NCBI GenBank assembly: GCA_944391465.1 | Contig: CALXTS010000004.1 | Location: forward strand, 7,942-71,941 | Direction: 5' to 3' | Length of the DNA: 64,000 nucleotides | Origin: an uncultured Alphaproteobacteria bacterium | Lineage (GTDB): Bacteria; Pseudomonadota; Alphaproteobacteria; RF32; CAG-239 | In this document: positions 27,231 to 53,250 of the stretch, one piece after another | How positions within the stretch are numbered: position 1 is the stretch's first letter | How the letters are laid out: each line of letters opens with the position of its first letter | Notes under the pieces: generated by a model | What the model was told of the DNA's origin: nothing | Database searches by the model: none | The model's input: the letters and a program-made list of their open reading frames with translations, nothing else | Program-made: the position numbers and the translations under genes

Positions 27231-28567
27231 ATCATACCCTCCAACATTTCTGGGTTACTTATTGTCCCTTTTAAGGCTTCTCCCGTATCTTTCAACTCAT
27301 TAGCCGCATCTATTGCTGCTGTGGCCTCATCTTTTATTGTACCTACTTTATCTTTTACATCATTATATGTACTTATGGCTTTATCAGTTTTATCTTTCAA
27401 ATCACTAACCGTTGATTTTGCGGAGCTGACTTGCCCCATTAAACTGGTATCTTTACTTCCGTACTCACTGTAATCACAAAGTTTGAATTTTGAATATTTT
27501 TTATTAACCTCTTTCGGGGTTAGTTTTGCCGCAGCTACCGTACTCTCTAAAATCAAATCATTAACAACCATCTCGGCATATTTATACAAAAGCTCTATCT
27601 CTTGTGTCATGACTTTTGTATGAACTCCCGATGTTTCTGATTCTCCCGGAGTTACTTTTGCTAAATTTTTGTTGGCATTAACTTCATCTATCAGTTTTGG
27701 TAGGGAGGCTTGTGTTCTTAAGGCTTTTTCATAAACATCGTATATGGCTTGCCTACGGTTGGAATAACGTTTTTCTTTCATGTCATTATTAGAAGCTATG
27801 GTTACTTTTTCTCCTGCTTGCAAAAAAATCTCATTCTTTGCGTTTTCAAGTGCCTCTGTCGGTACAGATAAAGAAATTTGCTCATCGCTATATAACTCAA
27901 GCATTCTGTTGCTCAAGGTTACAACTTTTTCGCCTTGATCTTTGAGCTTTTTATTATAGCTGTCTTCTAAATTGCCCTTGCTGTTATCAAGAGATTTTAG
28001 TTCTTGCTCTTGTTGGATTTGTAGATTTTCAATTGTTCTCTGGGCTGATTCTAATTCGGTATCGGTATAATCACCGCTATTTTGTAATTTAGACAGATTT
28101 TCTTGTGCTGCTGCAATCTTTTGAGCATATTTTTTCTCAATAACGCTTACCTGTTGTTCCAGTTCCTCTATTTTTTCTTTTTTCTCACTTTCAATATCTT
28201 TTAATTCTTTTGAGGCTGTTGCTATCTGTTTACTTATTTGCGCAGCTTTATACTCATTACTGTTGAGCACAGCGTTTTTATTGTCATTATAAAATTCCAT
28301 TGCGGCTTTATATTGGTCTTGAACAAATTTAAACCCATCTTTGGCTGCTTTAACTCCGTCTCCGACTAGTTTACCCATTTTAGAGCTACTAACCCATTGC
28401 ATTGCTTTCTCGCAGTTGGCTTTTATTTTACCAAACCATAAGCTCAAACGTGATGGGGTCTTCATTGTATCATTAACGCCGGCAATCTGCGCCTGAACTT
28501 CCGTCGCATAAAAAGGCGTTATTATAAGCATAACCATGATTCCGAAGGCTATAAAAACTTTTTTCAT
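27227..28567 (-). CDS. Secreted 446-aa coiled-coil protein, T4SS-associated, unknown function
   Basis: Signal peptide MKKVFIAFGIMVMLIITPFYATEVQAQ. Lys/Glu/Gln-rich helices. 4-nt overlaps with both neighbours. Confidence 0.7.
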   Translation of the reverse strand: MKKVFIAFGIMVMLIITPFYATEVQAQIAGVNDTMKTPSRLSLWFGKIKANCEKAMQWVSSSKMGKLVGDGVKAAKDGFKFVQDQYKAAMEFYNDNKNAVLNSNEYKAAQISKQIATASKELKDIESEKKEKIEELEQQVSVIEKKYAQKIAAAQENLSKLQNSGDYTDTELESAQRTIENLQIQQEQELKSLDNSKGNLEDSYNKKLKDQGEKVVTLSNRMLELYSDEQISLSVPTEALENAKNEIFLQAGEKVTIASNNDMKEKRYSNRRQAIYDVYEKALRTQASLPKLIDEVNANKNLAKVTPGESETSGVHTKVMTQEIELLYKYAEMVVNDLILESTVAAAKLTPKEVNKKYSKFKLCDYSEYGSKDTSLMGQVSSAKSTVSDLKDKTDKAISTYNDVKDKVGTIKDEATAAIDAANELKDTGEALKGTISNPEMLEGMI

Positions 28568-29058
28568 TTTTTATCTCCTTCTTCATCTGTCGGACGAGCC
28601 AACGGCAATATAGTTTCAACACCTTCAAGCAGCGATATTTTAGCCTCTAACTCAACTATTGAATTCAGACGTTCCGCAATTTTACTCAAATTCCCTTGAA
28701 TATCATTAGACAATACTTCATTTTTATTTTCAGAACCGCCAAGTTTGGATAAAAGACCATCTGCAGCACCTTCCGTGCTTGATTTTTTTGCATCATTTAT
28801 AAGTTTTACTCGGGTGGTCATAGCTGATGCATATAAATCTGAAGCCAAATCAAATCTTATTTGTTCCGACTTGGCATTAAATGCCATACCTCCTTCAATT
28901 CCGCCTTCATTCAACAGTGCATCGCTGATGCTATCTATATTGGCTCTGACATCATTAGGATCTTTGATAAATGAATAAACGTCTATTGCCAATGCTTCTT
29001 GTTTTAGGCACAACAAGGTAAGAATCAGAATAAAAATATATATCATTTTTTTACTCAT
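28564..29058 (-). CDS. Small secreted helical protein (164 aa); VirB5-sized but unproven
   Basis: Signal peptide IFILILTLLCLKQEALA. Predicted helical by composition. Overlaps its neighbours (translational coupling). Confidence 0.6.
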   Translation of the reverse strand: MSKKMIYIFILILTLLCLKQEALAIDVYSFIKDPNDVRANIDSISDALLNEGGIEGGMAFNAKSEQIRFDLASDLYASAMTTRVKLINDAKKSSTEGAADGLLSKLGGSENKNEVLSNDIQGNLSKIAERLNSIVELEAKISLLEGVETILPLARPTDEEGDKK

Positions 29059-30352
29059 GTTTTATTACCTCCGTTGTTGCTTGCAGATTTTTTCCGAAAA
29101 TTCGGCGGCGAGACACAGAATCCGAAACCTTATTCAAAATTACTGCTGAATCTTTTAATTTTTTACTTACATCTTCTTTGTTTTCTTCTGTTTTAATACT
29201 ATTTATTTGATTTTTCTTTTCTATTTGCATAAGTTGTTGCTCAAAACTGATGCTTGTTTGCGGCAACAGCTTTTCTTTGCTCTGACTTCCTTCCTCTTGT
29301 TTTATTTCTTCTGCTTGTTGTTTTATATCATTTACAGAAAGTTCCTGAAGAGCCATATTTTCCAGATTAGGTAATTCACCGGCTGTTTCTTTTAATTCAT
29401 CTCCGTCTATTACGCCTTCTTTATTTGCAACACTACTGATTGTATTTGCCCGTTCCAACAAATCATTTGATTGCTGAGACATGGTTGGTATTGTTAAGTC
29501 TTGCATAGAATCGCTCAAATTAACATTCGCACCTTCCGCCATACCTACATTTTGCGTTAATTCCGGAGAGGCATTTACCACCATTTCATTGCTCCCTCCG
29601 CTTGGCACAGAACTTGAACTCATTACATTCGGACTGCTTGCACTTATATCTGAGCTGTTGTTGCTTATTGATGCTGAAGGGACGGTAACTATATCTTCTC
29701 CACTGCTTTTACTGCTAAAAGGCGTTCTTTCGACTGCTGATGATACTTTATTTTGCGCCGCTGAAATTGCTGAACCTGCAGTATCTTTAAGCGCTCCTGT
29801 GGTTTCTTTCAGCGCAGAGGCCGTTTCTTTTGCATCATTAACGGCTGTTTTGGCATCTTCCACCATTCCTTTGGCTTTTTCATATTCTGCTTTGGCATCA
29901 TCAATATCTGATTTTATATTATTATATTCTTCTTTGGCTTCATTTATTTTATCTTGAACGTCATTTTTAAATTCAACGGCTTTTTCAACCTTATCGTTTA
30001 CCCAATCTTTGGCATCATTAATTTTATCTTTGGCATTATCATATTTTTCTTTTGCACTATCGTATTTTGCTTTAGCTTTATCTAACTTTTCTTTCATTTC
30101 TTTTGCTTTTTGAGCTCGCTTTGCAGCTTTTGATACCGCATTAATGTCTCCCAAAGCTCCGATTTTTCCGTTTATATAATTGGTTGCATAGCTTGCTATG
30201 TTTTCTTGCGCGGTTCCTGCCGCATTAACATAAACGGCAGCCGTGTCTATCGCATTAATTATCGGATCCGTTGAGGCGGCAAAGGCAATCCTTTCGTTAT
30301 AAAAAAATAACGAAATCAGAAAAAAAGCCGATATCAGAATTTTTTTTGCCAT
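29051..30352 (-). CDS. Secreted protein with LEA/apolipoprotein-like Lys-Asp-Ala amphipathic repeats (433 aa)
   Basis: The ORF track starts at 30415. ATG 30352 (MAKKILISAFFLISLFF...AFA) has an AAGGAAAGAGG SD and avoids overlap with the upstream gene. Repeats: DKAKAKYDSAKEKYDNAKDKINDAKDWVNDKVEKAVEFKNDVQDKINEAKEEY. Confidence 0.65.
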   Translation of the reverse strand: MAKKILISAFFLISLFFYNERIAFAASTDPIINAIDTAAVYVNAAGTAQENIASYATNYINGKIGALGDINAVSKAAKRAQKAKEMKEKLDKAKAKYDSAKEKYDNAKDKINDAKDWVNDKVEKAVEFKNDVQDKINEAKEEYNNIKSDIDDAKAEYEKAKGMVEDAKTAVNDAKETASALKETTGALKDTAGSAISAAQNKVSSAVERTPFSSKSSGEDIVTVPSASISNNSSDISASSPNVMSSSSVPSGGSNEMVVNASPELTQNVGMAEGANVNLSDSMQDLTIPTMSQQSNDLLERANTISSVANKEGVIDGDELKETAGELPNLENMALQELSVNDIKQQAEEIKQEEGSQSKEKLLPQTSISFEQQLMQIEKKNQINSIKTEENKEDVSKKLKDSAVILNKVSDSVSRRRIFGKNLQATTEVIKHE

Positions 30353-30362
30353 GCCTCTTTCC

Positions 30363-30971
30363 TTATTCCATATACTCATCCTCAATCTTGGCTGAGCTGT
30401 TACTGTTAAATTCATTTTGGCGATAATAATCTAGGGCTCTTAATGCCAATAATTCCGAATATGTGTCTATTATACCGACAATGCGTTCTCCGGTTAATGC
30501 CGTCAAATTAACATTTTCACATTGCCTACGATGTATTTTGCTACCTCCGTCTTCATCTCCGCCTATTGCTGAGGCTGCGTCCCCTACTGCGCCTCCCGAA
30601 TTATCTTTGCAATCATCTATAACTTTAGATATTTCATCTTTATAATCATCACTTTTTGAACGTTGTTGCAAAGACTTATACAGATATTCCGCATTTACCT
30701 GATGATATGCCTCATTAAAAAACGGATCATATTGAATATAACTTAATCCATCACTTTCTCTGAGGCGCAGAATTTTATTTAAACATTTTTTTACCGTGCC
30801 GTCCGTATGTATATCTGTTGAGGATATATCACAAAATAGGGCAAATTTCTTAGGAAATATCAAAACGCCATCGCTACCTCGGCCATTATCCTTCCCCAAT
30901 TGTGCAAAAGATTGTGGGGCATAAAATAATGCCATTAAAAAGACAGCAATTATTTTAAATGAAAATCTCAT
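30363..30971 (-). CDS. Secreted 202-aa protein, unknown function
   Basis: The ORF track starts at 31034. ATG 30971 (MRFSFKIIAVFLMALFYAPQSFAQ) follows GGAGGG and lies after the upstream stop at 30982. Confidence 0.6.
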   Translation of the reverse strand: MRFSFKIIAVFLMALFYAPQSFAQLGKDNGRGSDGVLIFPKKFALFCDISSTDIHTDGTVKKCLNKILRLRESDGLSYIQYDPFFNEAYHQVNAEYLYKSLQQRSKSDDYKDEISKVIDDCKDNSGGAVGDAASAIGGDEDGGSKIHRRQCENVNLTALTGERIVGIIDTYSELLALRALDYYRQNEFNSNSSAKIEDEYME

Positions 30972-30981
30972 TATCCCTCCA

Positions 30982-32679
30982 CTAATCTTCCGTTTGAGTT
31001 CTAAAATCATACTTTGAAATGTCGTAATTATCATAGCTTTCGAGCAATACTTTGGTTGTGTATAGCTTTAACAGACCACTGATTGTCGTTACTATTGTTT
31101 TATTGGTTTCTACTATTTGCGAATAAATATCTTTTGTCGTATCTGTTTGAGCAAAAGAAATTGACGGGACGATGTCATCGATCATTTTTTGCACATCTGA
31201 AAGTGCTTTATATCCCTCAACCATGTAAACTATTGCCAATTCTCTTTTCCCGTCATAATAATCTTGGCGAGGATTTTTAAATTCTTGAGAAAGTGCTCCA
31301 GACGAGGAATCATTTATTGAAACTAAGCATTCGTCAATGGCATATTTGTTTCTACCTGTACTGTTTAACGCTGTTTCAGATGTTAGCCCACAACGTTTGG
31401 CTATTGGCTTGGGAATAATAAAGTTCTTATTAATATCAGTTCCGTTATCCTCAAGGACTGCAAATTTTGCAAAAGCTAATTTACTATTTTGGGCTATTTT
31501 TGCTTTTCCTCTATAGCTTTCCTCATAAAAAGACATCTTATCTTTACTGAAAACTTTACGCGTCGGTGAGACTTCTAATGTCTTTTCTTGCAGTCTTTTC
31601 TGAATACTTTTGGTTGTATATGGATTTTCAATTACCTGTTTTGTTGCCGTATTTCCGGAATTTTGAATTGCTTGAATGCTGACGGCATTTCCTTTTAGTG
31701 TCGGAGAGTTTGCACTTGAAAGAGCACCTACATTATTGCTTATACTGACTCCGCCTACTCGATTAACAGCAACATTTCCAGCTTTTACAACACCTAAGGC
31801 ATTCTGCGTATTTAGGTTTACACTTCCAGTTATTGCTTTATTTTGGCTTATTTGACCAGTTGCCATGTTTCCGCTTGGTATTGCACCGACCATATTTTGT
31901 GCACCTAAACTTGCAACTCCATTTCCTGTTATTGCTTGCTGTGCCGTACTTCCTGCCGTATTATTAACTGCTAAAGCCTCATTATTTGCCGATGCTTGGT
32001 TTCCGCTAAATGCTACTCTGCTTGAGGTTGGAGAAACTGCTGAGTTTTCTTCTCCTCCCGTTAATGCTGTCCCACTGCTTGCTAATGTGCTTTCCGGTTG
32101 TAGTTCACCTGTTTCTACTGCTGATTCAGAATCTGCTCCACTTACAGACAAGCCGTTGGAACCTCCCTCTGATGAACTCCCTAAACCTGCTTTTTCTTTA
32201 ACACTGTTTATTTTACTGCTCGCAATATCTCCTGCAGCTGAAGCCATCTCTTTTGCCGCACCTACTGTTTCCGTAGCTTGTTCTTTTAAATCTTTGGCTT
32301 GTTGAATGCCGTCTTCGGCCATTTTTTTGTATTCTTCATACTCTCTTTTATATTCTTCATACTCTTCTTTATACTCATCTACCTGAGCTTTATAATCTTC
32401 ATACATCTTTTTCTTTTCGGCAATTTCTGCAGCTATGTCTCCGCCATATTCACTAATACTCTCTTTGGCTTCCCCAATTGCTGCGCTTGTCTTTTGAGCA
32501 AAAGATATGGTATCTTGCACTATCTTTAAGTCTTTTAAATCATTAAACCAGTTTTTGACATTATTTATACCGCTCTTAATGTCATTCGTTATCGCAAGAG
32601 CTTGAGATTCTGATATTTGTTGCGTTGTGGCACAGATAAACGCTATAAGAACTATTTTTGAAAACTGACCGATTTTCAT
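30982..32679 (-). CDS. Secreted 565-aa protein: coiled-coil N-terminus, Ser/Gly/Asn/Ala-rich middle, globular C-terminus (unknown function)
   Basis: Signal peptide IAFICATTQQISESQALA, then EYKEEYEEYKREYEEYKK, then a low-complexity stretch GNQASANNEALAVNNTAGSTAQQ. First gene after virB4. Confidence 0.65.
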   Translation of the reverse strand: MKIGQFSKIVLIAFICATTQQISESQALAITNDIKSGINNVKNWFNDLKDLKIVQDTISFAQKTSAAIGEAKESISEYGGDIAAEIAEKKKMYEDYKAQVDEYKEEYEEYKREYEEYKKMAEDGIQQAKDLKEQATETVGAAKEMASAAGDIASSKINSVKEKAGLGSSSEGGSNGLSVSGADSESAVETGELQPESTLASSGTALTGGEENSAVSPTSSRVAFSGNQASANNEALAVNNTAGSTAQQAITGNGVASLGAQNMVGAIPSGNMATGQISQNKAITGSVNLNTQNALGVVKAGNVAVNRVGGVSISNNVGALSSANSPTLKGNAVSIQAIQNSGNTATKQVIENPYTTKSIQKRLQEKTLEVSPTRKVFSKDKMSFYEESYRGKAKIAQNSKLAFAKFAVLEDNGTDINKNFIIPKPIAKRCGLTSETALNSTGRNKYAIDECLVSINDSSSGALSQEFKNPRQDYYDGKRELAIVYMVEGYKALSDVQKMIDDIVPSISFAQTDTTKDIYSQIVETNKTIVTTISGLLKLYTTKVLLESYDNYDISKYDFRTQTED

Positions 32680-32754: not shown

Positions 32755-35187
32755 TTACGCAAGATTTAAATATTTTGTAACAAAGTTTTCTTCACCGTAT
32801 TCTTTTATTAATTCTTCAACCAAAAGAACATTTTTGCGTCCGGAATTATATAGGCGCAAATACCTGCCGAGACCGCTTAAATCTACATCCAAAATAACAG
32901 ACTCTCCGGTTGCCGGGCGTGAAAGTAATATTGCATACGGAAAATCTCTATAACTCTTACCAAAGATAAAATCCGTTTCCGAATCTGTTAAATTCCAGTT
33001 GACATAATCTTCCGGCATAGCTTGCGGATTGCGGAAAAAGATTACCGTTTGGCATTGTCCGCGAATAACTTCTCCAACGCCTAGTTTATCAATAATATTC
33101 GGTTGTTGGAATGCGCACAAATAGGCTTGACGTTTTTTACGTCCCTCTTGTAATCCGATTGCAAAATAATCTCTAAACATCGGATGTTTTAACATTGGCG
33201 CCGTTTCATCAATCATAATTAGCGATGGTACTCCAGTTTCTCCGGTTTCTGACTGAATTCGGTGCATAATATAGCTGATAACCGCCGGAGCTAAAATTTC
33301 ATCTTCAAAAATGTGTGTGAAATCAAATGCCATAAAGCGTTTTGCTTTCAAATCCAAGCTATCATTTGTTGCATTAAAAATATTGCCATACTGATCAGGA
33401 TTTACCCATTTGAAAAGTTCGCGACGCATATTTCCCGTAGGAGAAAAGCAACTTTTGTACAAATTAGTCATCACGCGTTCTTCCGGACGAAGATAGTCAA
33501 ATGCCGTGGTTACGGCGCGTGCAATTTCTTTTTCCGATACCGCATCGTCAACCATGGTAATCGCACGCATCCATCTCCGCAAAAATGCTCGGTTATTCGG
33601 CGTATTCTCGCAGTCAAACGGATTTAAGGAAACATTTTTTTCGTCCCCCTCAAAACCGACATAGGCTCCGCCTATTGCTCTGGTAAATATTTCTGCACCT
33701 CGGTGGCGGTCAAAAAAGAATACTTTCAAATCACGGTGCCGCATGGCTTGTCCGGCAAGAAACGTCAGTAATGTTGTTTTACCTTGACCAGTCGGACCGA
33801 TAATACAGCAGTGTGCAACAGCGGAATCTTCTGATGAAACGTGAAACTGAAAACGATATGCCGAACCGGAAGTTGTTCGGAATACGGTAATGGCTCCCGG
33901 CCCCCAGTCACTCTTGCTGAAACCTTCTGAAGGGCGATCAAATGAAATTGCCGTTGCCACAACTCTGGAAAGATAACGATAGGTCCTTGGCAACATGTCA
34001 TATGTTGGAAATTGATTGAAGAAGGTTGCTTGTGTTACCCACCCTTCACGAACCGGCGTTACACTATATAAGCGGCAAATACGTTGGACTTCGCTTTCTC
34101 CGAAATCAAGTTCTTCCTTTGTATCTCCTTGCAAAATAATTGCCATCGCATACTCAGTTAAAGCCTGATGATTGGTATCACTATCTTCAATAGCGGCTAA
34201 AACTTCACTATATTGGTCAACAACGTCCCCCGAAAAACTAGTAGTGGCGGCCATTCTTTGTTGCTGCATTAATAACGCTCTGGCATGCGGCTTAAACATT
34301 GGCCGAATATTATGCAAAAGTGTTAATTCACAATCTATAGCCAAAAGCGAGGCGACCATTCCTTCATCCATGTAATCTCCGGATGAACGTATTCCCATGA
34401 CAATTTCAAATTTCTCTTTTGTTCCGGAGAAAAAGCGGATAATTCCGTCTTCTCCCGTAAAATGAATATGATCTGCCGTCAGCAATTCGTTAAGGTGTGC
34501 GCCTTCGGCACTGTTTATTTTAGGTTGCGGACGCGTTATCGGGCTGCATAGTTTGGCATATATTGATAACGGGCTGTCTTCTGCCGGCGAGCCTTCACTT
34601 TCATATAATGCGGTTACTCCATATTCATTCAAAGTTGCTATTAATGCCTGCGATGCATAATTCAAATCTTTAAGAGCTTCTTCTCTGTCCGCCACAGAAA
34701 GCACAATATAGTGTTTATTGCTAAACACTCTATCCAAATTTTCATGCCAGACTGCTGATATTTGCTTTAATAACGGATTTCCGAAATCTCCGCTTTCTGC
34801 CTCCAGAGGTATCCTTTCTCGCAATGTAATGACGCGACATATAACTCTTAAATCAGACAATCCGTCTATCCACGCTTTTCTTGCCTCCAGCATTGACATA
34901 ACTTTTTCATCAGTAACAAAGGATAAATCCATTCCTTCAATTCTGAAAACTCGCGCCAATGAGTTATTATAACAGCGGATTGTCATTCCATCTGATAATA
35001 TTTTATTAAACGGCAAAAAGTCAGATACCCGAGACTCTCGTGGCTGCGGCAGAACAAAATATCCGAGCTTTGTTGCCCAGAATCCGGCAAAAGCCGCCGC
35101 CGATATAAAACCGATGACCGCTACAATTACCTCAACGTTTGAAAGTCCTTGAACGAAAATACTGAAAAAATCAAAATCAGGGCGCAA
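32755..35187 (-). CDS. virB4: VirB4/CagE/TrbE-type T4SS ATPase
   Basis: 810 aa. Walker A GPTGQGKTT, Walker B-like LIMIDETAP, conserved FFRNPQA-type C-terminus. An N-terminal hydrophobic segment is present. Overlaps virB3 by 11 nt. Confidence 0.95.
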   Translation of the reverse strand: MRPDFDFFSIFVQGLSNVEVIVAVIGFISAAAFAGFWATKLGYFVLPQPRESRVSDFLPFNKILSDGMTIRCYNNSLARVFRIEGMDLSFVTDEKVMSMLEARKAWIDGLSDLRVICRVITLRERIPLEAESGDFGNPLLKQISAVWHENLDRVFSNKHYIVLSVADREEALKDLNYASQALIATLNEYGVTALYESEGSPAEDSPLSIYAKLCSPITRPQPKINSAEGAHLNELLTADHIHFTGEDGIIRFFSGTKEKFEIVMGIRSSGDYMDEGMVASLLAIDCELTLLHNIRPMFKPHARALLMQQQRMAATTSFSGDVVDQYSEVLAAIEDSDTNHQALTEYAMAIILQGDTKEELDFGESEVQRICRLYSVTPVREGWVTQATFFNQFPTYDMLPRTYRYLSRVVATAISFDRPSEGFSKSDWGPGAITVFRTTSGSAYRFQFHVSSEDSAVAHCCIIGPTGQGKTTLLTFLAGQAMRHRDLKVFFFDRHRGAEIFTRAIGGAYVGFEGDEKNVSLNPFDCENTPNNRAFLRRWMRAITMVDDAVSEKEIARAVTTAFDYLRPEERVMTNLYKSCFSPTGNMRRELFKWVNPDQYGNIFNATNDSLDLKAKRFMAFDFTHIFEDEILAPAVISYIMHRIQSETGETGVPSLIMIDETAPMLKHPMFRDYFAIGLQEGRKKRQAYLCAFQQPNIIDKLGVGEVIRGQCQTVIFFRNPQAMPEDYVNWNLTDSETDFIFGKSYRDFPYAILLSRPATGESVILDVDLSGLGRYLRLYNSGRKNVLLVEELIKEYGEENFVTKYLNLA

Positions 35188-35467
35188 ATTTATTCCCCTT
35201 TACTTTATAAAGATTATACGAAACTTTATTACTTTGCCCGTAGGCCTGAATCATCGTGGAAATATGAGGTTCCTTAACACCGGCTACTACACAAATGATG
35301 TGCCCTAAAACTAGCGTTACCATAAAAATAATCGGGTTGATATCAAATGTCCCCATGAACATGAACATAATCGGAAATTGCAACCCCATATTTAACAGAG
35401 TTGGCAAAAACGGTCCCCACAGAACTTTCGGGGGATTTGCTACGGCTTTTAAAATTACTTCACGCAT
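35177..35467 (-). CDS. virB3: VirB3-like small membrane protein
   Basis: 96 aa immediately 5' of virB4. LKAVANPPKVLWGPFLPTLLNMG is followed by two hydrophobic helices and VKEPHISTMIQAY, matching the usual VirB3 layout. Confidence 0.8.
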   Translation of the reverse strand: MREVILKAVANPPKVLWGPFLPTLLNMGLQFPIMFMFMGTFDINPIIFMVTLVLGHIICVVAGVKEPHISTMIQAYGQSNKVSYNLYKVKGNKFAP

Positions 35468-35650: not shown

Positions 35651-38600
35651 TTATTGGGTCACAATATCTTCAATTTTTCCTTGTCTTGGTTTACCGTCTG
35701 CTCCAAGTAAAACTCGGCCTTTATTGTCGGTTACCAAAGGTATCGGACTACCATTTTCATCAAGAATCGGTTTTCCACTGTCATCTACCGCTACCGGAAT
35801 TTCATTACCATTTTTATCCAATACCGGCACACCTTTTTCATTTACAAGAATTTGGCGTTGTTCCTCCGTTTCATTTTGAGAATCTTTCAAACTCTGGAGT
35901 TGCTCAAGGCGGCGTTGGCGTGCTTCTCTATTTAATTGATCCGCATCTATGTCGCTTTGTCTTATACGCTCCTCAACCATAGCATCACCTTGGAGCATTT
36001 TCTGACGCAGAATTTCGCTTTGATATTCTTCTTGTCTTTGCTCGTTAAGTTTGGCTGCGGCTCTGGCTGCAGCAGCCTCTTGCGCTTGAAACTGACGGGC
36101 TCTTGAGGCTGTATCCGATGATGAGCCTTTTCCGGTATTGCTATAGCTTGCCCCTCCTGATGATGCTCGGAATACCGTTCCTGTAGATGAGCTGCTTACT
36201 CTTCCTGAACTATATCCCCTTGCCGTGGCACGTCCTGTCCATGAGCTAAATACTTTTTTCGGCGTATAGTAATATCCGCTGCTTCCGGTATGTTGTTCTG
36301 GTGTTGCCTCCTCTTCTTTACTGACAAGATTATCCTCAACATCTTCATCATTTTCTACTCTATCAGCAAGATTTCCTTTGTTAGGATCAAGTTCATCATT
36401 TTCCACCCTATCTGCAAAACTGCCTCCTGACGTATCAACAGGTTCGTTTTCAACTCTGTTGGCAAACTGATCTTTTGTTGTATCAACGGCTTCATTTTCT
36501 ACTCGATTGGCAAAATTATTTCCTGAAGTTGGATTATTTTTATTTGAAGTTGAACTTCCTGATGTATTATTTCCTCCAGAACTGCTCGTTCCCGAAGAGT
36601 TTCCTCCTGAACTTCCGTTATTTGAAGAATTATTTCCTCCGCTTACAAATGGGGTATCTCCATTGTTTGTTCCGTAGTTTGATTTTGGATTTTCAAGCTC
36701 GGCTTGGCGGGTTGCCTCTTCATAATAACGCATGTCAGCTTCATTACGGCGTTTAATTTCTTCATCTATTTTATTTTGAGCCGCTTGAGATTCTTGCTGT
36801 AACTTTTGGACTTCTTTATAAGCCTCCTGAGCTGCTAAAATACTCTCAGCATCATTCTTTTCTTTGGCAACTTTTACCAATTCATCAAGATTTTGTTGCG
36901 CAGCCTTTACTTTTGCGGCGGCAGCCGTTGCTTCTTCTCGTGCTGCCTGTATCGCAGCTTCTGCCGCAGCTTTTTCTTTTTTGGCGGCTTCTTGGTTGGC
37001 TTTTGCTTCTTCTATTGAGGCTTGACGTGCTTTTTCTTGAAGCTCTGCAACCGGCTTAGCCTTTTCTGCCGCTTCTTTCTTAGCGGCTGCCGCTTCTTGT
37101 GCTGCCAATTCTGCTCGTTTTGCGGCTTGTTCAGCTGCTCTTTTGGCTACCGGATCTCCGCTTTCTGCGGCGAGTTTAGCGGCTTCTTCTGCCTTTTTAG
37201 CTGCCTGTTCTGCTGCTCTTTCTTTTTGTGCGGCTTGGTTTGCGGCATTTTTAGCATCTGCCTCTGCTTTGTTTGCCGCCTGATTTGCCGCTTCTGCCTT
37301 CTTTGATGCAGTTTGGCTGGCTGCATATTGCTCTCTTAACCTTTGCGCCTCTTCTTCCGCTTTAGCTTTCTCCTGCTCTTGCTTTTGCAGTTCTTTTTCG
37401 GTTACACTATCTTGATCAATAACCTCATAATCCTTCATTGCCAAACCATTCATTTCTGCGTCTACTTTAGCAATAAATATATTGGCGTTATCAACCTTCT
37501 TTTTCTCAGATTGCAGTTCTTCTTCTTTTTCTTTTACGGCTTTTTGTTGTTTTGACAATGCTTCTTGCGAGGCTTTGTATTTTTCTTCTGCCTCTCTGGC
37601 TTTTGCAACATCCTCACTTGAACCACTGGCTAAAGCGGCTTCTCTTGCTGCTTCATATTCCTCTTTTGCTTTTTGTGTTTCAGCTGAAAGTTTCTCTTCC
37701 TGAGCTTGTTCATAGGCAATTGAACCTTCGACATCAGCACCACCGCTCAGTACTTTTATATTTTCTTCCGACTGTTCTTTTATTTTTTGTGCGGTTTCTT
37801 TAGACTCTGTTCTGGCGTTGTCTGCCAATTCTTGTAGAGGTTTTTTAGCTTCTTCCAATTTGCTGTTGGCCTTATCTGCCGCAGCTTGAGCGTCTTTCAA
37901 TTTATTATTGGCAGCTGTTGCTTCAGCTTCTGCAATATTATAACGGCTGGTATAAAGGCTACATTGGCTTGTGTTTCCGCTTTTGCAAGCCTCTTCTTTT
38001 TGTGCTTTGAGTTTTTCTGCCGTAGCATTTTTGCTGTCTGCCGTTGCTTGGGCATTCTTTAATGCAGTTTGCTTATTTGATGCATCTGATGCTGCAGCTT
38101 TGTATTGTGCCTCGGCTTCTCTGGCGGCTGCTACCGCATCTTTGGCTTTATTAACGGCTTGTTCAACCTCGGGGCCTCCGGTATTTTCCTCTTGGCGCTG
38201 TTGATTTAGCCATTGCTGATTCTTTTCCTCCTCCGCTTTGGCCTTTTGTTCTGCAGCTCTTTGTTCTGCGGCAGCTTTTTGTTCTGCAGCTTTTTGCTCG
38301 GCTGCAGCTTGCTGTTTTGCCTCCTCTTTAGCTTTTTTCTTATCGGCTATACTATCATTGATTGAACCGTCTTTACCCAAAACCTTACCAACCAAATCAG
38401 AATTTCCGATTGTTGAGGCGATAGATGATACGTTTTTAACATTATCTTGTAATACGGAATTTGCTTTAGAGCTCGTGTCTTTTATTGCATCTGCCGTATC
38501 TTGAATTTTACTTACAATATTATCATCTTGGGCAATTTCCCCACCATACAGACGTTCTACTTGTCCGTCAGCTCCGACAGTTTGTCCTTTTAAGAATCGG

Positions 38601-41284
38601 TCAACAGCATTTGTTCCTTCTCCGCTGGCGCGTTTGGCCTCCAGCTCGGCAACTTGATCCGTACTCTTGGTTACATCTTGCAAATCATTTGAAATATTTC
38701 CGACATTCTTGATAATATTATTTGTCAAGCCTCCGGTAGCACCGGCAATGTTATTTATGTTTGAACCGATTTCTCCTATGGCCTTAACATAGTCTTCAAT
38801 ATTACTAAAATCACCACTGGCAATTTTTCCGGCCATGTCTCCAATATTTTTAGCCGCATTCGTAACTGTTTGAACGGTTGATTTTACTTGGTTGATTGTT
38901 TGTTTTGCTGTATTAACGGCACTTACAGCTTTTTTACCTGCGGCTGTAATGTCTTTTACGCATGACGTGAAGTTACTTAAGAAACTTGCTCCTGCCGTAC
39001 CTCCGCAGAATCCTCTGGCTTTTTCCGTGTATTCCGGTGTTGCGGCACCATCTTGAAGTATTCCGTTAATGCTGGCATCATCCGGCTCTACGTATAAGGC
39101 AGATTCCGGTATCCACCCCCATTCGGTATCCCCCATCCCTTTTGATAAATTATCTCCATAAGAAAGGCTACCTTGCTGATATTGCGGCCCCGTACAAATT
39201 CCGTTTGAGCATGATGTCGGGAAAACGAAATATTCAATAAAACGTCCCATGTTGGCTACTAAAAACAGACCAATTCCTATATTGGCAAACCATTTCCAGC
39301 TCAGTTTATTTACCAGTGCCATATAGGCAAAGCCAATTAATCCAAATCCGGCAAATACATAAACTATTTTCTTTAAGCCAAATAAGACAGCAAACGCACG
39401 CATTGAAAGTGCATGGAAAATATCTCCACTGGCCGAATAATCAGCCAAACCTTGTCCCGGCGTTCCCATAAAGACTTCGCCTTCATGGGATTGGGCAACA
39501 CCGCTTTCTGCCATGGCATCGGATAAATTATCTATTGTTCCTTTAACTTCATCCAACTCTTGCTCTTTTCCGGCAATTTGTTGTTCCAATGCAGCAACTT
39601 CCGCGCAAGATTTTTGAGCAGCCTCTTGTCCTGCCTTTGATGTCAAGGTACTGTTATGTTCACAGGCTTTTTTGGCCTCTTCTAATTGTTCTTTTAATGA
39701 AGATAATTCGTTTTCAAGAGATTGTTTTTTATCTGCCGCTTCATCATATTCTTTTTTGATATTGGCACTGGCGGCATTACTTGAAACATCTTTATATTCC
39801 AAATAGGCCTTATCTGCTGCATTTTGTAATTCGGAAATTTTTTCATCTGTTAATTCTTCTGCACTTCCTACCCCTAATGCCGCCAAGTCGCTTTCCGTAC
39901 AACTGCTGGGGGAGGCTTTACATTTTTGTGCCGTGTTATAAAGCGTTTTGGCATCATTATATCTGTCTTTTGATGCTTGAATCTGCTCTTTGGTATTTCC
40001 ATATTTGGCATTAGTCAATGCGGTTTGTGCATTTTTAACATCTTTATCTATTTGAGCAATGCTGTTGTCATATGCTGTTTGTGCTGCGGCTTCACATTGG
40101 GTTTTATCATTGCCTGTTTTCCCTTCGCAGGCTTTTTTAGCTGTTTCAAGTTGAGCGGCTGCCTCTTTTTTCTTATCTGCAGCGCTGTTTATTATTTCAT
40201 TATTTTTTGCCTCTTCTGCCGCAGCTGCGCGTGCAGCTTCCTCTGCCGCCTCTTTTTCAGCGGCAGCTTTTGCTTCTGATACAACATATCCTTGCTGTGT
40301 ACGGTTTCTATTTTCATTTAATGTGGATATATCATTTTGCGCTTCTTGCTGTCTTTTTTCAGCATCTGCTTTTTCTGCTTGTGCCTCTTGACATTTGGTC
40401 GCATCATATTTTTTACTGCTGCTGTCGCAATATTTATCAATATCTTTATTGGCACTCTTTAAATCTTTTTCAGCTTTGCTGGCGGCTTTATTGGCGGCTT
40501 TTAAATCCGAACTATATTGTTTATCATAAGCCTTTTGCGCGTCATCTATTTGTTCTTTTAAGGCTTTTTGTTCTTCTGTTTGTTTTTTTACTTGCTCAGT
40601 ATAATCGGCTTGCTTTTCTTTTACTTGTGTACAAGCACTTTTGTCTCCGCTTGCGCATTTAACATTCAATGCGGTAATTTCAGCTTGTAACTCCTTATTT
40701 TTGGCCGCATTGTCAATTTCATTTTGTGCCCATTGATCTTTTGACAAACCTATTAATGCAGCATTATTTTTATCTTGTGCATTTTCATATTCTTTTGCCG
40801 CAGCGGCAGCTTTTTCTTTGTCTGATTGCGCGTAGCTTAATGTTGAGCCGCTAAATGCACTCATAAATGCTTCATTTTCTTCTACTTTCTTTTGTGCTGC
40901 CTCATAATTAGCTTGAGCATTGGCTAAATTATTATCATAATTTTCCGTACCATATTGCTCAGCCCTTCGAGCTATGTCGGCTGTATTAGCATCTGCTTCT
41001 GCTTGTGCTAATTGGTTTGCCAGTTGTTGAGCGGCGGCTTTTGCTTTGTTTTTACAATCCGTTAATTTTGTTCCGGTATAGCTTGCCTCACATTTTCTTG
41101 ATTCAACCGTGTAGTAGTAATTTGGATCTGTTTTGAGGCGTTGATTATCTACAGCTTTTATTAATTGCTCTAGCGTCATAGAGGGGGTGTCGTCCGCAGC
41201 ATAAATTGTGCCGGAAACGAGAATAGATGAAACGCAAATCAGCGCTCCCATCATTACTTTAAGTAAATTTCTCTGCTTAAACAT
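35651..41284 (-). CDS. Giant 1877-aa secreted/membrane protein with an internal VirB2/TrbC-like pilin hairpin
   Basis: Signal peptide (LICVSSILVSGTIYAADD). About 600 aa of Ala/Lys/Glu coiled coil with Cys pairs. A two-TM hairpin LKKIVYVFAGFGLIGFAYMALVNKLSWKWFANIGIGLFLVANMG (DNA ~39215-39420) aligns with the two upstream VirB2-like ORFs. About 1190 aa of helical/low-complexity C-terminal region follows. Confidence 0.7.
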   Translation of the reverse strand: MFKQRNLLKVMMGALICVSSILVSGTIYAADDTPSMTLEQLIKAVDNQRLKTDPNYYYTVESRKCEASYTGTKLTDCKNKAKAAAQQLANQLAQAEADANTADIARRAEQYGTENYDNNLANAQANYEAAQKKVEENEAFMSAFSGSTLSYAQSDKEKAAAAAKEYENAQDKNNAALIGLSKDQWAQNEIDNAAKNKELQAEITALNVKCASGDKSACTQVKEKQADYTEQVKKQTEEQKALKEQIDDAQKAYDKQYSSDLKAANKAASKAEKDLKSANKDIDKYCDSSSKKYDATKCQEAQAEKADAEKRQQEAQNDISTLNENRNRTQQGYVVSEAKAAAEKEAAEEAARAAAAEEAKNNEIINSAADKKKEAAAQLETAKKACEGKTGNDKTQCEAAAQTAYDNSIAQIDKDVKNAQTALTNAKYGNTKEQIQASKDRYNDAKTLYNTAQKCKASPSSCTESDLAALGVGSAEELTDEKISELQNAADKAYLEYKDVSSNAASANIKKEYDEAADKKQSLENELSSLKEQLEEAKKACEHNSTLTSKAGQEAAQKSCAEVAALEQQIAGKEQELDEVKGTIDNLSDAMAESGVAQSHEGEVFMGTPGQGLADYSASGDIFHALSMRAFAVLFGLKKIVYVFAGFGLIGFAYMALVNKLSWKWFANIGIGLFLVANMGRFIEYFVFPTSCSNGICTGPQYQQGSLSYGDNLSKGMGDTEWGWIPESALYVEPDDASINGILQDGAATPEYTEKARGFCGGTAGASFLSNFTSCVKDITAAGKKAVSAVNTAKQTINQVKSTVQTVTNAAKNIGDMAGKIASGDFSNIEDYVKAIGEIGSNINNIAGATGGLTNNIIKNVGNISNDLQDVTKSTDQVAELEAKRASGEGTNAVDRFLKGQTVGADGQVERLYGGEIAQDDNIVSKIQDTADAIKDTSSKANSVLQDNVKNVSSIASTIGNSDLVGKVLGKDGSINDSIADKKKAKEEAKQQAAAEQKAAEQKAAAEQRAAEQKAKAEEEKNQQWLNQQRQEENTGGPEVEQAVNKAKDAVAAAREAEAQYKAAASDASNKQTALKNAQATADSKNATAEKLKAQKEEACKSGNTSQCSLYTSRYNIAEAEATAANNKLKDAQAAADKANSKLEEAKKPLQELADNARTESKETAQKIKEQSEENIKVLSGGADVEGSIAYEQAQEEKLSAETQKAKEEYEAAREAALASGSSEDVAKAREAEEKYKASQEALSKQQKAVKEKEEELQSEKKKVDNANIFIAKVDAEMNGLAMKDYEVIDQDSVTEKELQKQEQEKAKAEEEAQRLREQYAASQTASKKAEAANQAANKAEADAKNAANQAAQKERAAEQAAKKAEEAAKLAAESGDPVAKRAAEQAAKRAELAAQEAAAAKKEAAEKAKPVAELQEKARQASIEEAKANQEAAKKEKAAAEAAIQAAREEATAAAAKVKAAQQNLDELVKVAKEKNDAESILAAQEAYKEVQKLQQESQAAQNKIDEEIKRRNEADMRYYEEATRQAELENPKSNYGTNNGDTPFVSGGNNSSNNGSSGGNSSGTSSSGGNNTSGSSTSNKNNPTSGNNFANRVENEAVDTTKDQFANRVENEPVDTSGGSFADRVENDELDPNKGNLADRVENDEDVEDNLVSKEEEATPEQHTGSSGYYYTPKKVFSSWTGRATARGYSSGRVSSSSTGTVFRASSGGASYSNTGKGSSSDTASRARQFQAQEAAAARAAAKLNEQRQEEYQSEILRQKMLQGDAMVEERIRQSDIDADQLNREARQRRLEQLQSLKDSQNETEEQRQILVNEKGVPVLDKNGNEIPVAVDDSGKPILDENGSPIPLVTDNKGRVLLGADGKPRQGKIEDIVTQ
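36345..36515 (-). repeat. Four tandem ~48-bp (16-aa) coding repeats, FA(N/D)RVEN(E/D)xVD
   Basis: FANRVENEAVDTTKDQ / FANRVENEPVDTSGGS / FADRVENDELDPNKGN / LADRVENDEDVEDN. On the + strand TTTTCTACTC-like strings recur about every 48 bp. Confidence 0.8.
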
Positions 41285-41343: not shown

Positions 41344-41985
41344 TCATTTAAGCGTATCAGTAATTACACTTGTTGTAAAAGTCTTACACCCTGTAACCGC
41401 ATTAATCAGCTCTCCGGTCGTTGCTATAATAACCAACGAAATAACAATGGCTCCCAGCCATTTATAGTTGAGATTCCCAAAAAAACCTCCAACAGACACA
41501 CCTATAATACCAAATCCCGCAACAACATAGATGAGCTCTCGCAATCCTTTAAATATCTTTCCTCCGGTTGCTATCAAACCGCTAAATAATCCATAATCTG
41601 CCGAACAGCCTGATACATCGGCCACGCTAGCTTTTGCATTACTTGCCCCTTCCGTTGCAGGAACTTGACATATTCCGCTAATACATTGTTGCCCCTCTGT
41701 TGTACAATCACTATTACTTTTACAAGATTGGGTACTCCAAGTTACTGCAACATCTTTATTAACCACAGTTTCTTCTTTTCCTTCTTCATTTGTCGTTGTT
41801 TTAACCGGAGATACACAATCTGAATATTTTCCTGCGGCTTGATTATATTTACAACACTGACCATTATATAAAACTTTTCCCTCCAAACATGTCATTCCAC
41901 TTGCAGCGTCAGAATTATTTGGCATTAGCATACAGCAAAAAACGGCAACTAACAAAAGCCGAAATATTTTAGTCAGATTTGTCAT
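41344..41985 (-). CDS. VirB2/TrbC-like pilin paralog with Cys-rich N-terminal extension (213 aa)
   Basis: Signal peptide LLLVAVFCCMLMPNNSDAA. A ~110 aa Cys-rich module follows (CLEGKVLYNGQCCKY...SCKSNSDCTTEGQQCISGICQ). The C-terminal hairpin RELIYVVAGFGIIGVSVGGFFGNLNYKWLGAIVISLVIIATTGELINAVTG matches the other two copies. Confidence 0.7.
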   Translation of the reverse strand: MTNLTKIFRLLLVAVFCCMLMPNNSDAASGMTCLEGKVLYNGQCCKYNQAAGKYSDCVSPVKTTTNEEGKEETVVNKDVAVTWSTQSCKSNSDCTTEGQQCISGICQVPATEGASNAKASVADVSGCSADYGLFSGLIATGGKIFKGLRELIYVVAGFGIIGVSVGGFFGNLNYKWLGAIVISLVIIATTGELINAVTGCKTFTTSVITDTLK

Positions 41986-42063
41986 GGCGTCCTCCGTTTT
42001 TGCTTGTACATTTGGGAATATCGTCTTTTAACCACATTCCGAAACACACATGTGTTAAAATCA

Positions 42064-42098
42064 GGGTCGCAAGGCTATGCTGAAAACCTTTGCGACCC
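42064..42098 (-). terminator. Hairpin attenuator/terminator just after the first virB2 gene
   Basis: GGGTCGCAAGG (42064-42074) pairs with CCTTTGCGACCC (42087-42098) with one bulge. On the - strand transcript the stem is followed by UGAUUUU. It lies 12 nt after the virB2 stop. Confidence 0.55.
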
Positions 42099-42109
42099 TA
42101 TTTTTATTA

Positions 42110-42457
42110 TTATCCGTTGGTTGCAGAATCAAATGAATCGTTAAATCCTGCTTGACCTGTTGAGTCACCGGTTGCGTATGTTACGATAGAACCTGCGGCC
42201 GCAACAATTGCCAAACCTACAGCCAATCCGGCAAACCATGTCCATTTAATCTTACCGGTAATCGCCGTAAAGGCAACAGCTATCAAACCAAAACCACCGA
42301 CAACGAAGAATATTTTCTTAACTTCGGTAAATACGTTCAAAGCCTTTTCTTTTGCTGTTGACATAACAGACTGAGCTGATGCATCTCCTGCAAAGGCCAT
42401 CAGTGTAAACACTGCTACCAGACAGAATGTCCAGATATTATTTTTGATAAAGCGCAT
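42110..42457 (-). CDS. virB2: VirB2/TrbC-type T4SS pilin (115 aa precursor)
   Basis: Long signal peptide (WTFCLVAVFTLMAFAGDASAQ), then a two-helix hairpin KKIFFVVGGFGLIAVAFTAITGKIKWTWFAGLAVGLAIVAAAGSIVTYATG. First gene of the array that continues to virB3-virB4. SD AAGGAGA. Confidence 0.75.
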   Translation of the reverse strand: MRFIKNNIWTFCLVAVFTLMAFAGDASAQSVMSTAKEKALNVFTEVKKIFFVVGGFGLIAVAFTAITGKIKWTWFAGLAVGLAIVAAAGSIVTYATGDSTGQAGFNDSFDSATNG

Positions 42458-51524: not shown

Positions 51525-52646
51525 ATGGCTGAAACAAAACGCAAATCTCAATCTATGCAACTGGCGATGAAACGCTTCAATACCATTGAAGAATATTACG
51601 CCAAAATGATTGTGCAGATGTCTAATAAAACTCGGTTAAAGATGTATCGGAAAATTGCATCTTTAATGAAAAACCGATTTTCCTTAATGGATGCTTTAGA
51701 TATGCTTCATGATGGGGCTAGTAACGGCGGTAAAAACCCTAGCGAACCTCTTGCTATTGCTATTGCCGCTTGGGGAAGAGCATTAAACAACGGTAAAACT
51801 TTCTCCGATGCTTTGAAAGGCTGGGCGCCCGACCGAGAGAGATTGATGCTTTCTGTTGGTGATGTTTCTGACCTTGAAGGTGCTTTGTTAAACCTTATTA
51901 AAGTAACCGAAGGTTCTACCAAAATGATTAGGCCTATTGTCGGAGCTATTGCTTATCCTGCCTTTTTGTTTATGATGTCTGTTTTAATTATTTATGCCAT
52001 CGGTGTTTATATGGTTCCGCCTATGCTTGATGCGGCGCCGGGCGTTCAGTGGCATGGAATGGCTGCCGACTTGGTGGATTTATCTTATTGGATTAAAGAA
52101 AATTGGTTAGTTGCTTTCGCTTCACTGCCTATAATTATGATTGTCATTTATGCTACAGTCGGTATTTGGACCGGCCCTATTCGTGTTCTTTTTGACAGTA
52201 TTCCCCCATGGTCACTTTATAAAGTATTTGTCGGTATTAGTTGGCTTTTGGCTTTGTCTGCTCTTGTAAAAGGAGGAACGCCTGTATCGACAGCAATGCG
52301 CGCTCTAAGACGTGATTCCACAAAATATTTAAAGGAACGAATTGATAAGACTTTGGTTTTTATCAATAACGGTGATAACTTAGGTCAAGCTCTTGCTAAA
52401 ACAAAATTAAACTTCCCTGATCCGGAAATTATCGGAGATTTAAAAATTTATTCTGAATTGGATAACTTTGAAGAAGCTCTGGATAATCTTGCAAATGAGT
52501 GGTTGGAAGAATCTGTATTTGTAATTGAAGAAAAAGCCAGTATTTTGAACATGGTCGCTATTTTATCCGTTGGTGCTGTTATTGCCTGGGCCGTTATGGG
52601 TACTTTTGAAATGCAAGACCAGATTACAAGCGGTATGGGAGGTTAA
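51525..52646 (+). CDS. pilR: GspF/PilC-family inner-membrane platform protein (R64 PilR equivalent)
   Basis: 373 aa with two cytoplasmic helical repeats and three TM segments (IAYPAFLFMMSVLIIYAIGVYMV, LVAFASLPIIMIVIYATVGIW, ILNMVAILSVGAVIAWAVMG). It follows the ATPase. Confidence 0.88.
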   Translation: MAETKRKSQSMQLAMKRFNTIEEYYAKMIVQMSNKTRLKMYRKIASLMKNRFSLMDALDMLHDGASNGGKNPSEPLAIAIAAWGRALNNGKTFSDALKGWAPDRERLMLSVGDVSDLEGALLNLIKVTEGSTKMIRPIVGAIAYPAFLFMMSVLIIYAIGVYMVPPMLDAAPGVQWHGMAADLVDLSYWIKENWLVAFASLPIIMIVIYATVGIWTGPIRVLFDSIPPWSLYKVFVGISWLLALSALVKGGTPVSTAMRALRRDSTKYLKERIDKTLVFINNGDNLGQALAKTKLNFPDPEIIGDLKIYSELDNFEEALDNLANEWLEESVFVIEEKASILNMVAILSVGAVIAWAVMGTFEMQDQITSGMGG

Positions 52647-52647
52647 A

Positions 52648-53250
52648 ATGGATTTTTTATCCCAAAAATTAAAAAATTTTGCCACTTTTGTAAAAACGCA
52701 ATATACTCAAGCATCTTTAAAAAAAAGAGCTCTGTTTTTGTTGCTTTTTGCTTTTTTAATTTTTGTTTTTAACGGATTTTTTTATAGAGCTGAGACTTTA
52801 GAAGCGCCGGAAGAACCTTCCAATCTGTTAAAATTAACGGAAAATATACGACGTTATTATCAAAATCGTCCTGATTATTGGGGGCTTAACTCTGATTCTA
52901 TAATTAAGAATAAAATTGTTCCGTTAGCTTTATTAAAAAATGACCGAATAATCTCCGGTTTCGGAACTGATATTTTAGTAGGCAACACTCCCAATGGTTC
53001 AATGCTTATGCCCGGAGCCAGAAGTTTTAATATTATTTATAGTAATTTAAATAAAAAGCAGTGCATTGAATTAGCTTCCGGAAAATTTGATGAAAAATTT
53101 TGGCTAGGAATTATAGATGTTACTATCAACAATAGCATTAAAAATGAGGTTTTTAGTTGGAATGACAAAAAAAATATTTTGCCAATTAAAAAAAATATTG
53201 CTAAAGAGATTTGTAAAAGCTCTAATACGATAATTTTTCATATTGAATAA
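52648..53250 (+). CDS. Pilin-fold paralog lacking a prepilin leader (200 aa)
   Basis: ATG 52648 follows GGGAGG; the ORF-track start 52570 overlaps pilR. One TM (ALFLLLFAFLIFVFNGFFY). ISGFGTDILVGNTPNGS...FNIIYSNLNKKQCIELASGKFDEKFWLGIIDVTINN parallels the pilins' ISAFGGEVLVSAVQGADGT...FQIIFNGLGKDACTSLASSDWGTDGLVGIIVNG. Confidence 0.5.
   Translation: MDFLSQKLKNFATFVKTQYTQASLKKRALFLLLFAFLIFVFNGFFYRAETLEAPEEPSNLLKLTENIRRYYQNRPDYWGLNSDSIIKNKIVPLALLKNDRIISGFGTDILVGNTPNGSMLMPGARSFNIIYSNLNKKQCIELASGKFDEKFWLGIIDVTINNSIKNEVFSWNDKKNILPIKKNIAKEICKSSNTIIFHIE

Follow-up and report, generated by a model that had tools for sequence, protein, structure and literature searches.

Can a VirB2 pilin, which in the systems known to be characterised is a tiny subunit that leaves the inner membrane to be stacked into a narrow tube, be carried within a protein of 1,877 residues? 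The question is raised by a chromosomal VirB/Trw-type (MPF-T-like) type IV secretion system (T4SS) of uncultured gut Alphaproteobacteria, encoded in a stretch of 64,000 nucleotides (assembly GCA_944391465.1, contig CALXTS010000004.1, positions 7,942 to 71,941) that was analysed as a whole and is hereafter called the window. A first-pass annotation had placed a VirB2/TrbC-type hairpin inside the giant product of one of its minus-strand genes, a claim that is upheld by pairwise, profile-profile and Pfam evidence and by conserved synteny. We consider it very probable that the giant is a paralogue of the VirB2 pilins, in which a complete mature core is set between an N-terminal arm of ~590 residues and a C-terminal arm of ~1,190 residues (hereafter the N arm and the C arm).

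The pilin core of the giant protein

The gene is an unbroken frame of 1,877 codons that yields a product of 1,877 amino acids (aa), with a GGAGG ribosome-binding site 7 nt 5' of the ATG. The hairpin string singled out in the first-pass annotation corresponds to residues 637-680 (nucleotides 39245-39376) and lies within a core that comprises two membrane helices, led in by an amphipathic helix, and the conserved FNK-SWKW loop. Its reported gap-free alignment with a 115-aa open reading frame (ORF) of the same operon was recovered by BLASTP with composition correction (the method used for pairwise core comparison), as residues 629-685 of the giant align over 57 columns at 42% identity (E = 1.4e-14); residues 614-683 align with a neighbouring 213-aa ORF over 70 columns at 34% identity (E = 8e-11). 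At the level of families, hhalign matched 46 giant-type hairpins with 58 small pilins at 99.4% probability (E = 2.4e-21), and the 71 matched columns cover the entire mature part of the small pilin.

The TrbC family of Pfam (PF04956, gathering score 27.9 bits) gave a graded picture: the 115-aa ORF is matched at 38.8 bits, whereas the 213-aa ORF (16.9 bits) and the excised giant hairpin (17.7 bits, E = 0.004) both stay below the gathering score, and the full-length giant has no match to TrbC. Among the giant-type cores from other genomes, 10 of 16 matched TrbC at E <= 0.01, with no other family recurring comparably. Many close homologues carry a precomputed PF04956 match, and one of them is named 'TrbC/VirB2 family protein' by NCBI.

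A GFG motif and an F-x-K/N-x-S/N-W-K-W loop are common to all three paralogue families found at these loci (small, N-extended and giant), although overall they are only ~30% identical. The loop reads NKLSWKW in the giant and NK[LI]SWKW across its family, with two conserved Lys. Hydropathy peaks at residues 640-658, with a weaker maximum at ~663-685, and AlphaFold2 (with 42 family sequences) predicted helices at 621-657 and 663-687, the core reaching a model confidence (pLDDT) of 72-87. The two helices of the proposed hairpin are thus predicted, but a pilin counterpart in the PDB was not retrieved by Foldseek. PDB sequence searches with the hairpin profile and with the full protein gave no matches. 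Likewise, tblastn of the giant core against plasmids gave none, and the small pilin found a single marginal match (E = 0.05), to an annotated TrbC/VirB2 gene.

Across species, the 71-residue core keeps a mean identity of 69%, as compared to 80% for the small pilin and 76% for the N-extended pilin; relative to the window's own copies, VirB3 has a median identity of 78% and VirB4 one of 88%. Considering that this conservation extends to motifs, beyond the hydrophobicity that is all a simple anchor needs, we argue that the core may meet the partners of an ordinary pilin.

Orthologues, arms and topology

A scan of one genome per species found 130 relatives, from which 80 loci were kept, all of them from gut metagenome-assembled genomes (MAGs). 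The labels of 79 of these loci (uncultured Alphaproteobacteria, 'Proteobacteria bacterium CAG:495' or 'Azospirillum sp.') presumably correspond to the GTDB order RF32, and judging by the record names the samples stem from several human cohorts (Hadza and Nepal being mentioned) and from roe deer, water deer, sheep and probably rabbit ('Lapin'). The one exception (L054, JAISFX010000138.1) is a 4.3-kb contig with two VirB2 paralogues of this family; its place in a 'Lactobacillus sp.' MAG almost certainly reflects wrong binning and not a real occurrence in Firmicutes.

The kept loci hold 58 small pilins, 42 N-extended pilins and 46-48 complete giants. The fusion proposed from the window alone is therefore a recurrent one: the same signal-arm-core-arm layout was found in 46-48 other species-level genomes, in the form of orthologues of 645-2,058 aa that each have an internal core. 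The giant is followed by virB3 and virB4 within 148-566 bp in 42 of 45 loci, and the same order is seen in loci L003 and L005. An exhaustive profile search of 1.84 billion representative proteins returned 614 relatives at a threshold of E <= 0.001, of which 213 pass E <= 1e-30; the relatives in this library reach 2,138 aa, and their core often starts 200-800 residues from the N-terminus.

These occurrences bear on the most trivial explanation, namely that the giant is an assembly chimera, a read-through artefact or a decaying pseudogene. Its metagenomic origin and the low-complexity, repetitive character of the arms would speak for an artefact; we nevertheless hold the probability of one to be negligible, given that the identical 1,877-aa product is present on contigs from an ENA assembly and from Logan assemblies, that the 46-48 species-level genomes sharing the layout at the same locus stem from differing studies and assemblers, and that many of the 213 closest library relatives have an internal core. 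The suspicion of a chimeric or interrupted gene, voiced in the first-pass annotation, is one that the giant has survived. The ENA contig with the identical giant gene (L086) ends ~1.2 kb upstream of the helix-turn-helix (HTH) gene described below, and the window reaches ~3 kb further, so that it has to derive from a different assembly of this organism.

All 48 orthologues have a signal-like N-terminus. The window's giant contains 18 mature Cys, arranged as nine local pairs spread over both arms (those of the N arm being 65/77, 210/218, 286/298, 386/397, 455/462 and 541/560). Across the 48 orthologues, 97% of the Cys in the arms lie within 25 residues of another Cys (45% in position shuffles), and the Cys count is even in 83% of the proteins, a pairing pattern compatible with turns that are stapled by disulfides, the compartment being an oxidising one on either side of the core. 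The signal-like N-termini and the Cys pairing indicate, at the level of sequence, that both arms would be exported to the periplasm, as are the termini of an ordinary VirB2, with the loop left in the cytoplasm. They thus support the both-arms-outside topology that had been proposed.

The arms are rich in Ala, Lys, Glu and Gln and poor in Pro, and their helical amphipathic periodicity is well above that of shuffled sequences. Every flanking feature that had been described beforehand was found (signal-like N-terminus, paired Cys, AAEQK runs, Ser/Gly/Asn stretch and DxxG tail), with one amendment: the four repeat units of the distal C arm, which are encoded by a 48-nt DNA repeat, have the form A[ND]RVEN, and only two of them read ANRVEN, the other two being ADRVEN.

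Conservation surrounds the core and fades away from it. Interspecies BLASTP partners were obtained only for residues ~500-980 of the window's giant and none outside ~400-1000; the conserved stretch comprises the last ~120 residues of the N arm (with the Cys541-Cys560 loop), the core, the linker and a post-hairpin helical domain, which begins at the Cys760-Cys775 loop and is kept in 91-96% of the orthologues (by BLASTP coverage). Similarity between the distal C arm and the C arms of other species is undetectable. Both arms vary 3-4 fold in length across the orthologues (231-824 residues for the N arm and 335-1,400 for the C arm), and a repeat insertion in the N arm separates two members of one 90%-identity cluster (662 vs 710 aa).

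The AlphaFold2 model of residues 596-985 (26 homologues) is all-helical, its mean pLDDT of 42.9 being too low for interpretation or for use as a search query. A VirB5-like identity of the post-hairpin domain is unsupported, as the core profile retrieved only generic helical bundles from the PDB (chemoreceptors and designed proteins). Pfam searches with this domain and with the C-terminal tail returned weak helical-protein noise only, the tail being without a beta-flower or DUF3659 match. The DxxG tail was also dropped as a candidate for a conserved docking module, because its motif cluster is present in only 2 of the 48 orthologues.

Sister pilins and the surrounding locus

The minus-strand operon (Table 1) begins with the small virB2, the N-extended virB2, the giant, a virB3-like gene and virB4, and continues through six genes without a family to two copies of virB8, virB9, the gene of a 1,113-aa beta-flower protein, virB10 and virB11. 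The T4SS is thus headed by a conserved pilin set, which consists of a canonical pilin of ~115 aa, an N-extended pilin and a giant that is extended at both ends. Both small ORFs upstream of the giant had initially been taken for ordinary pilins by their size, a description that holds for the 115-aa protein, probably the major pilin, but not for the 213-aa one, which is an N-extended VirB2 with a Cys-rich domain. The extension of the latter spans ~120 residues and has a weak match to the EB module; equivalents of 150-280 aa occur in 42 related loci, and their family aligns with that of the small pilins at E = 8e-40 (hhalign).

Table 1. Coordinates of the giant gene, its parts and neighbouring features in the window.
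Feature	Position	Strand	Basis
Giant VirB2-family gene, 1,877 aa	35651..41284	-	Continuous ORF; identical product in several independent assemblies; orthologues
Signal-peptide-like N-terminus, residues 1-29, MFKQRNLLKVMMGALICVSSILVSGTIYA	41198..41284	-	Hydrophobic residues 7-25; equivalent in every orthologue
N arm, residues 30-618, Ala/Lys/Glu-rich, helical, six local Cys pairs	39431..41197	-	Composition, Cys spacing, helical periodicity
Embedded VirB2/TrbC pilin core, residues 619-690	39215..39430	-	BLASTP, hhalign, Pfam TrbC, AlphaFold2, motifs
Linker and conserved post-hairpin helical domain, residues 691-985, Cys 692/697 and 760/775	38330..39214	-	BLASTP coverage, column conservation
Distal C arm, residues 986-1877	35651..38329	-	Ala/Glu/Lys helical repeats, Ser/Gly/Asn tract, Ser-rich tract, DxxG tail
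N-extended VirB2 paralogue, 213 aa: signal peptide, Cys-rich domain, C-terminal pilin core	41344..41985	-	hhalign, BLASTP
Strong stem-loop with U-rich tract, terminator/attenuator-like, just 3' of the small pilin stop	42056..42106	-	Folding energy
Canonical-size VirB2/TrbC pilin, 115 aa, first gene of the operon	42110..42457	-	Pfam TrbC, 38.8 bits
VirB3-like membrane protein, 96 aa, overlaps virB4	35177..35467	-	Size, hydrophobic segments and position only
VirB4 ATPase	32755..35187	-	Pfam CagE_TrbE_VirB; PDB TrwK/VirB4 of R388, E = 4e-46

The stem-loop behind the small pilin gene has a minimum free energy of -25.6 kcal/mol (z = -7.4 against shuffles). Its position fits a high expression of the small pilin with a lower read-through into the extended paralogues, and it may in this way set the stoichiometry of the set. 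The structure escaped the consensus terminator scan owing to its 8-nt loop flanked by a bulge.

In sister gut alphaproteobacterial MAGs, VirB2 proteins with only a C-terminal extension (P0014, 689 aa; P0049, 540 aa; P0007, 234 aa) occupy the same position before virB3. Their core is 45-60% identical to that of the giant, the post-hairpin region also aligns in the longer members (e.g. P0049), and they carry a precomputed PF04956 match. They differ from the giant in that the core directly follows the signal peptide, without an N arm, and in that the C extension measures ~110-640 aa; hence, they look like an evolutionary intermediate form. C-extended related paralogues terminate in small Cys-knot modules placed on Ser/Gly-rich stalks.

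In the relatives with a C extension only, cleavage of the signal peptide falls, in the alignment, exactly at the point where the core begins. VirB2/TrbC-family pilins are trimmed at both ends during maturation, and some are also cyclised (TrhA, TrbC). Both observations would suit a polyprotein precursor, from which removal of the arms would yield a pilin of ordinary size, free coiled-coil proteins (periplasmic or secreted) or both. We regard such a precursor as rather remote, since the core of the giant orthologues lacks a conserved flanking cleavage motif (no conserved small-x-small site was found), the scan of ORFs at the locus turned up no S26 or TraF-like peptidase, the operon already has a canonical pilin gene, and conserved modules directly adjoin the core on both sides.

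The T4SS families recognised by Pfam at the locus are CagE_TrbE_VirB (VirB4), VirB8 (twice), CagX (VirB9), TrbI (VirB10) and T2SSE (VirB11). The closest solved relative of VirB4 is TrwK of R388. Of the virB3-virB4 pair that had been reported downstream of the giant, virB4 is hence confirmed by Pfam and by TrwK, while virB3 goes by size, hydrophobic segments and overlap with virB4 only, the 96-aa product being without a Pfam match. No VirD4, TraG or relaxase family was found among the window ORFs scanned, and these could be encoded elsewhere in the genome; a coupling protein and a relaxase would have pointed to conjugation. Between virB4 and virB8 neither VirB5 nor VirB7 is recognisable, and NCBIfam was uninformative on the proteins of the locus.

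The six genes in this interval (23259-32679, minus strand) encode proteins of 565, 223, 454, 164, 446 and 1,323 aa, some of which are coiled-coil; five have signal-like N-termini, the 223-aa one has internal hydrophobic segments, and none could be assigned to a family. They are followed on the same strand (19770-23242) by the two adjoining VirB8 paralogues, a duplication that recalls the rvh system of Rickettsiales, and by a VirB9 of 560 aa with a C-terminal SPOR peptidoglycan-binding domain. Both VirB10 (1,515 aa) and the neighbouring 1,113-aa protein (11902-19794, minus strand) carry many beta-flower (PF21785/PF21784) and DUF3659-type repeats, which are an unusual decoration of T4SS outer-membrane components.

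On the plus strand, a 1,018-aa protein (1025-4081) with seven hydrophobic segments and a weak TrbL/VirB6 match probably represents an extended VirB6 whose gene stands away from the main operon. The adjacent 323-aa protein (4225-5196, plus strand) has two HTH_3-type domains, weakly resembles phage RstR repressors and the Wolbachia Wmk family, and is a possible regulator beside the T4SS. Divergent from the operon, a type IVb (R64 thin-pilus-like) pilus cluster has its first ORF from 42900 and a complete set of genes, with those for TcpQ, secretin, PilO-like, ATPase and platform proteins, from 44737; it is closed by five tandem PilS/bundlin-type type IVb pilin paralogues (52570-56311, plus strand). 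Opposite-strand type IVb pilus genes are found upstream in at least 23-31 related loci.

Possible roles of the giant pilin

We reason that the giant may be a specialised minor pilin, a view to which we assign a probability of about 0.4 and in which the core would engage the pilus assembly machinery while the arms would form variable surface fibrils. Thus, the Sec signal would export the N arm, the first pilin helix would act as a transfer stop, the short basic loop would remain in the cytoplasm, and the C arm would be exported by the second helix. The core would be recognised by VirB3, VirB4 and VirB6, like that of the small pilin, and the giant would enter the small-pilin polymer in low numbers or at one end. 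Its arms would project as long disulfide-stapled helical fibrils, with the conserved membrane-proximal modules (residues ~500-620 and 756-980) serving as a collar and the hypervariable distal parts as a strain-specific adhesive or shielding surface.

Solved structures of conjugative pili show the basic loop turned towards the lumen and the two termini exposed to solvent (bioRxiv 10.1101/2024.03.04.583355); if the giant's core were taken up by the assembly machinery, its arms would accordingly come to lie outside the fibre. The paralogues look like one pilin core bearing different exported passengers (the Cys-rich N-terminal module, the Cys-knot modules on stalks), a pattern that fits a minor pilin. 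By their variable length, lack of distal similarity and repeat insertion, the arms look more like surface than structural parts, and the terminator-like hairpin 3' of the small pilin gene gives a hint of stoichiometry in the same direction. That the giants are in fact built into the pilus shaft or into a tip layer, giving a 'hairy' pilus whose disulfide-stapled fibrils of 600 and 1,200 residues differ between strains, is a tentative idea with the odds against it.

Several observations weigh against a minor pilin. The TrbC score of the giant's own hairpin (17.7 bits) falls short of the gathering score. Foldseek gave no match at E <= 0.001 when the 95-residue hairpin model was compared with the PDB, a two-helix hairpin being a poor query. 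With the single sequence of Agrobacterium VirB2 (verified against annotated plasmids), the giant-hairpin profile gave no significant match, nor in hhalign did any of the three pilin-family profiles. Given these negatives, membership of the VirB2/TrbC family rests on the Pfam profile, transitive homology and gene context, with no direct link to a solved pilin; descent from this family is most likely on these grounds. Since pili are extended at the base and emerge through the outer-membrane core complex, two arms of 600 and 1,200 residues per subunit would be hard to let pass, so that incorporation would have to be rare, terminal or via an unusually wide channel. Finally, the hypervariable coiled coil could stem from relaxed constraint on a spacer.

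The steric problem would be sidestepped if giant subunits had no need to enter the secretion channel, and this leads to a serious rival of the minor pilin: an inner-membrane-anchored periplasmic scaffold, whose core would stay in the membrane and there tie the protein to the pilin pool or to the inner-membrane complex of the T4SS. The arms would then fill or span the periplasm of an unusually large Cag-like machine, as a stalk, a cage or a tether to the outer-membrane complex. Such a scaffold would be in keeping with a locus in which other envelope parts are enlarged (the 1,515-aa VirB10, the 1,113-aa protein, the SPOR-bearing VirB9) and which encodes the extra 1,323-aa and coiled-coil proteins and the 1,018-aa VirB6-like protein. 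It would also suit the conservation of membrane-proximal modules on both sides of the hairpin, and the DxxG tail shows a weak likeness to the beta-flower repeats found in the 1,113-aa protein (E = 0.04) and in VirB10 (E = 0.23; both by BLASTP). However, a spacer should hold its length, and yet the arms vary 3-4 fold and are unconserved in their distal sequence; the DxxG cluster is confined to 2 of the 48 orthologues; and the core is conserved in pilin-specific motifs, beyond hydrophobicity. On balance, we see the scaffold as possible and not as likely.

The objection is also solved, with the conserved core keeping its role, if one or a few giants are added last, so that their arms block at the outer-membrane channel, stop elongation and lock the pilus to the envelope in the manner of a terminator or base anchor. 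Pilin-like recognition is supported by the evidence already given for a minor pilin, and the expression hint given by the terminator-like hairpin fits a low stoichiometry. We know of no precedent for such a role, which leaves the hypervariable distal arms unexplained, along with the Cys-knot modules of the paralogues that are reminiscent of ligand-binding knobs, and we rate it as improbable.

Canonical conjugative pilins (Agrobacterium VirB2, RP4 TrbC, R388 TrwL, F TraA) share with the giant a helix-loop-helix core with a short basic loop, a signal peptide and an N-out/C-out topology (both predicted in the case of the giant), a gene position just upstream of virB3-virB4 and, at the level of its family, a TrbC signal in Pfam. 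VirB2/TrbC pilins are made as precursors of about 70-145 aa and measure about 65-80 aa when mature, whereas the giant, with its large passengers at both ends of the core, lies far outside the small-size criterion of the family (1,877 aa; orthologues 645-2,058 aa). VirB2, TrbC and TrhA cyclise head-to-tail, which the giant could do only after the loss of both arms.

Multi-copy, sequence-variable VirB2 sets are known from the TrwL copies of the Bartonella Trw system, the VirB2 paralogues of Anaplasmataceae and the six VirB2-like pilins of Patescibacteria (PMC12857230). Such arrays resemble the window's locus in placing divergent paralogues side by side at one T4SS, and in their proposed role as a variable surface or in adhesion; their members are all of ordinary pilin size, whereas the paralogues described here differ in architecture. 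The extended VirB6 proteins of Rickettsiales and others, and CagY (VirB10) of Helicobacter pylori, are like the giant in joining a core domain to large, fast-evolving hydrophilic or repetitive regions, and the VirB10, VirB9 and VirB6-like proteins of the window are enlarged as well; the difference is that here the extended subunit is the pilin itself. A 2025 review of T4SS diversity lists extended VirB6 proteins, with their function unknown, and no extended VirB2 (PMC12857230). Literature searches for extended, atypical or fused VirB2, and for the lineage together with T4SS, found nothing relevant, and the earlier remark that no VirB2 of this architecture had been described agrees with both.

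Current models of pilus biogenesis and channel gating presuppose a small pilin, while the arms of the giant together exceed 1,700 residues. Either the machinery is able to cope with very bulky subunits, or the pilin fold has come to serve as a module that targets or anchors a protein to the secretion machine, and both would be new for T4SS biology. Should the 'hairy' pilus be true, the VirB2 fold would be a general display platform for large passengers, and the outer-membrane channel and the assembly route would be quite unlike those of model T4SSs. The family is large, conserved and unannotated, and its sequence clusters, from gut bacteria of humans and other mammals, number in the hundreds. 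In this widespread uncultured gut lineage, an enlarged and unstudied chromosomal T4SS is paired with a type IVb pilus, and a role of this system in contacts with other bacteria or the cells of the host is conceivable.

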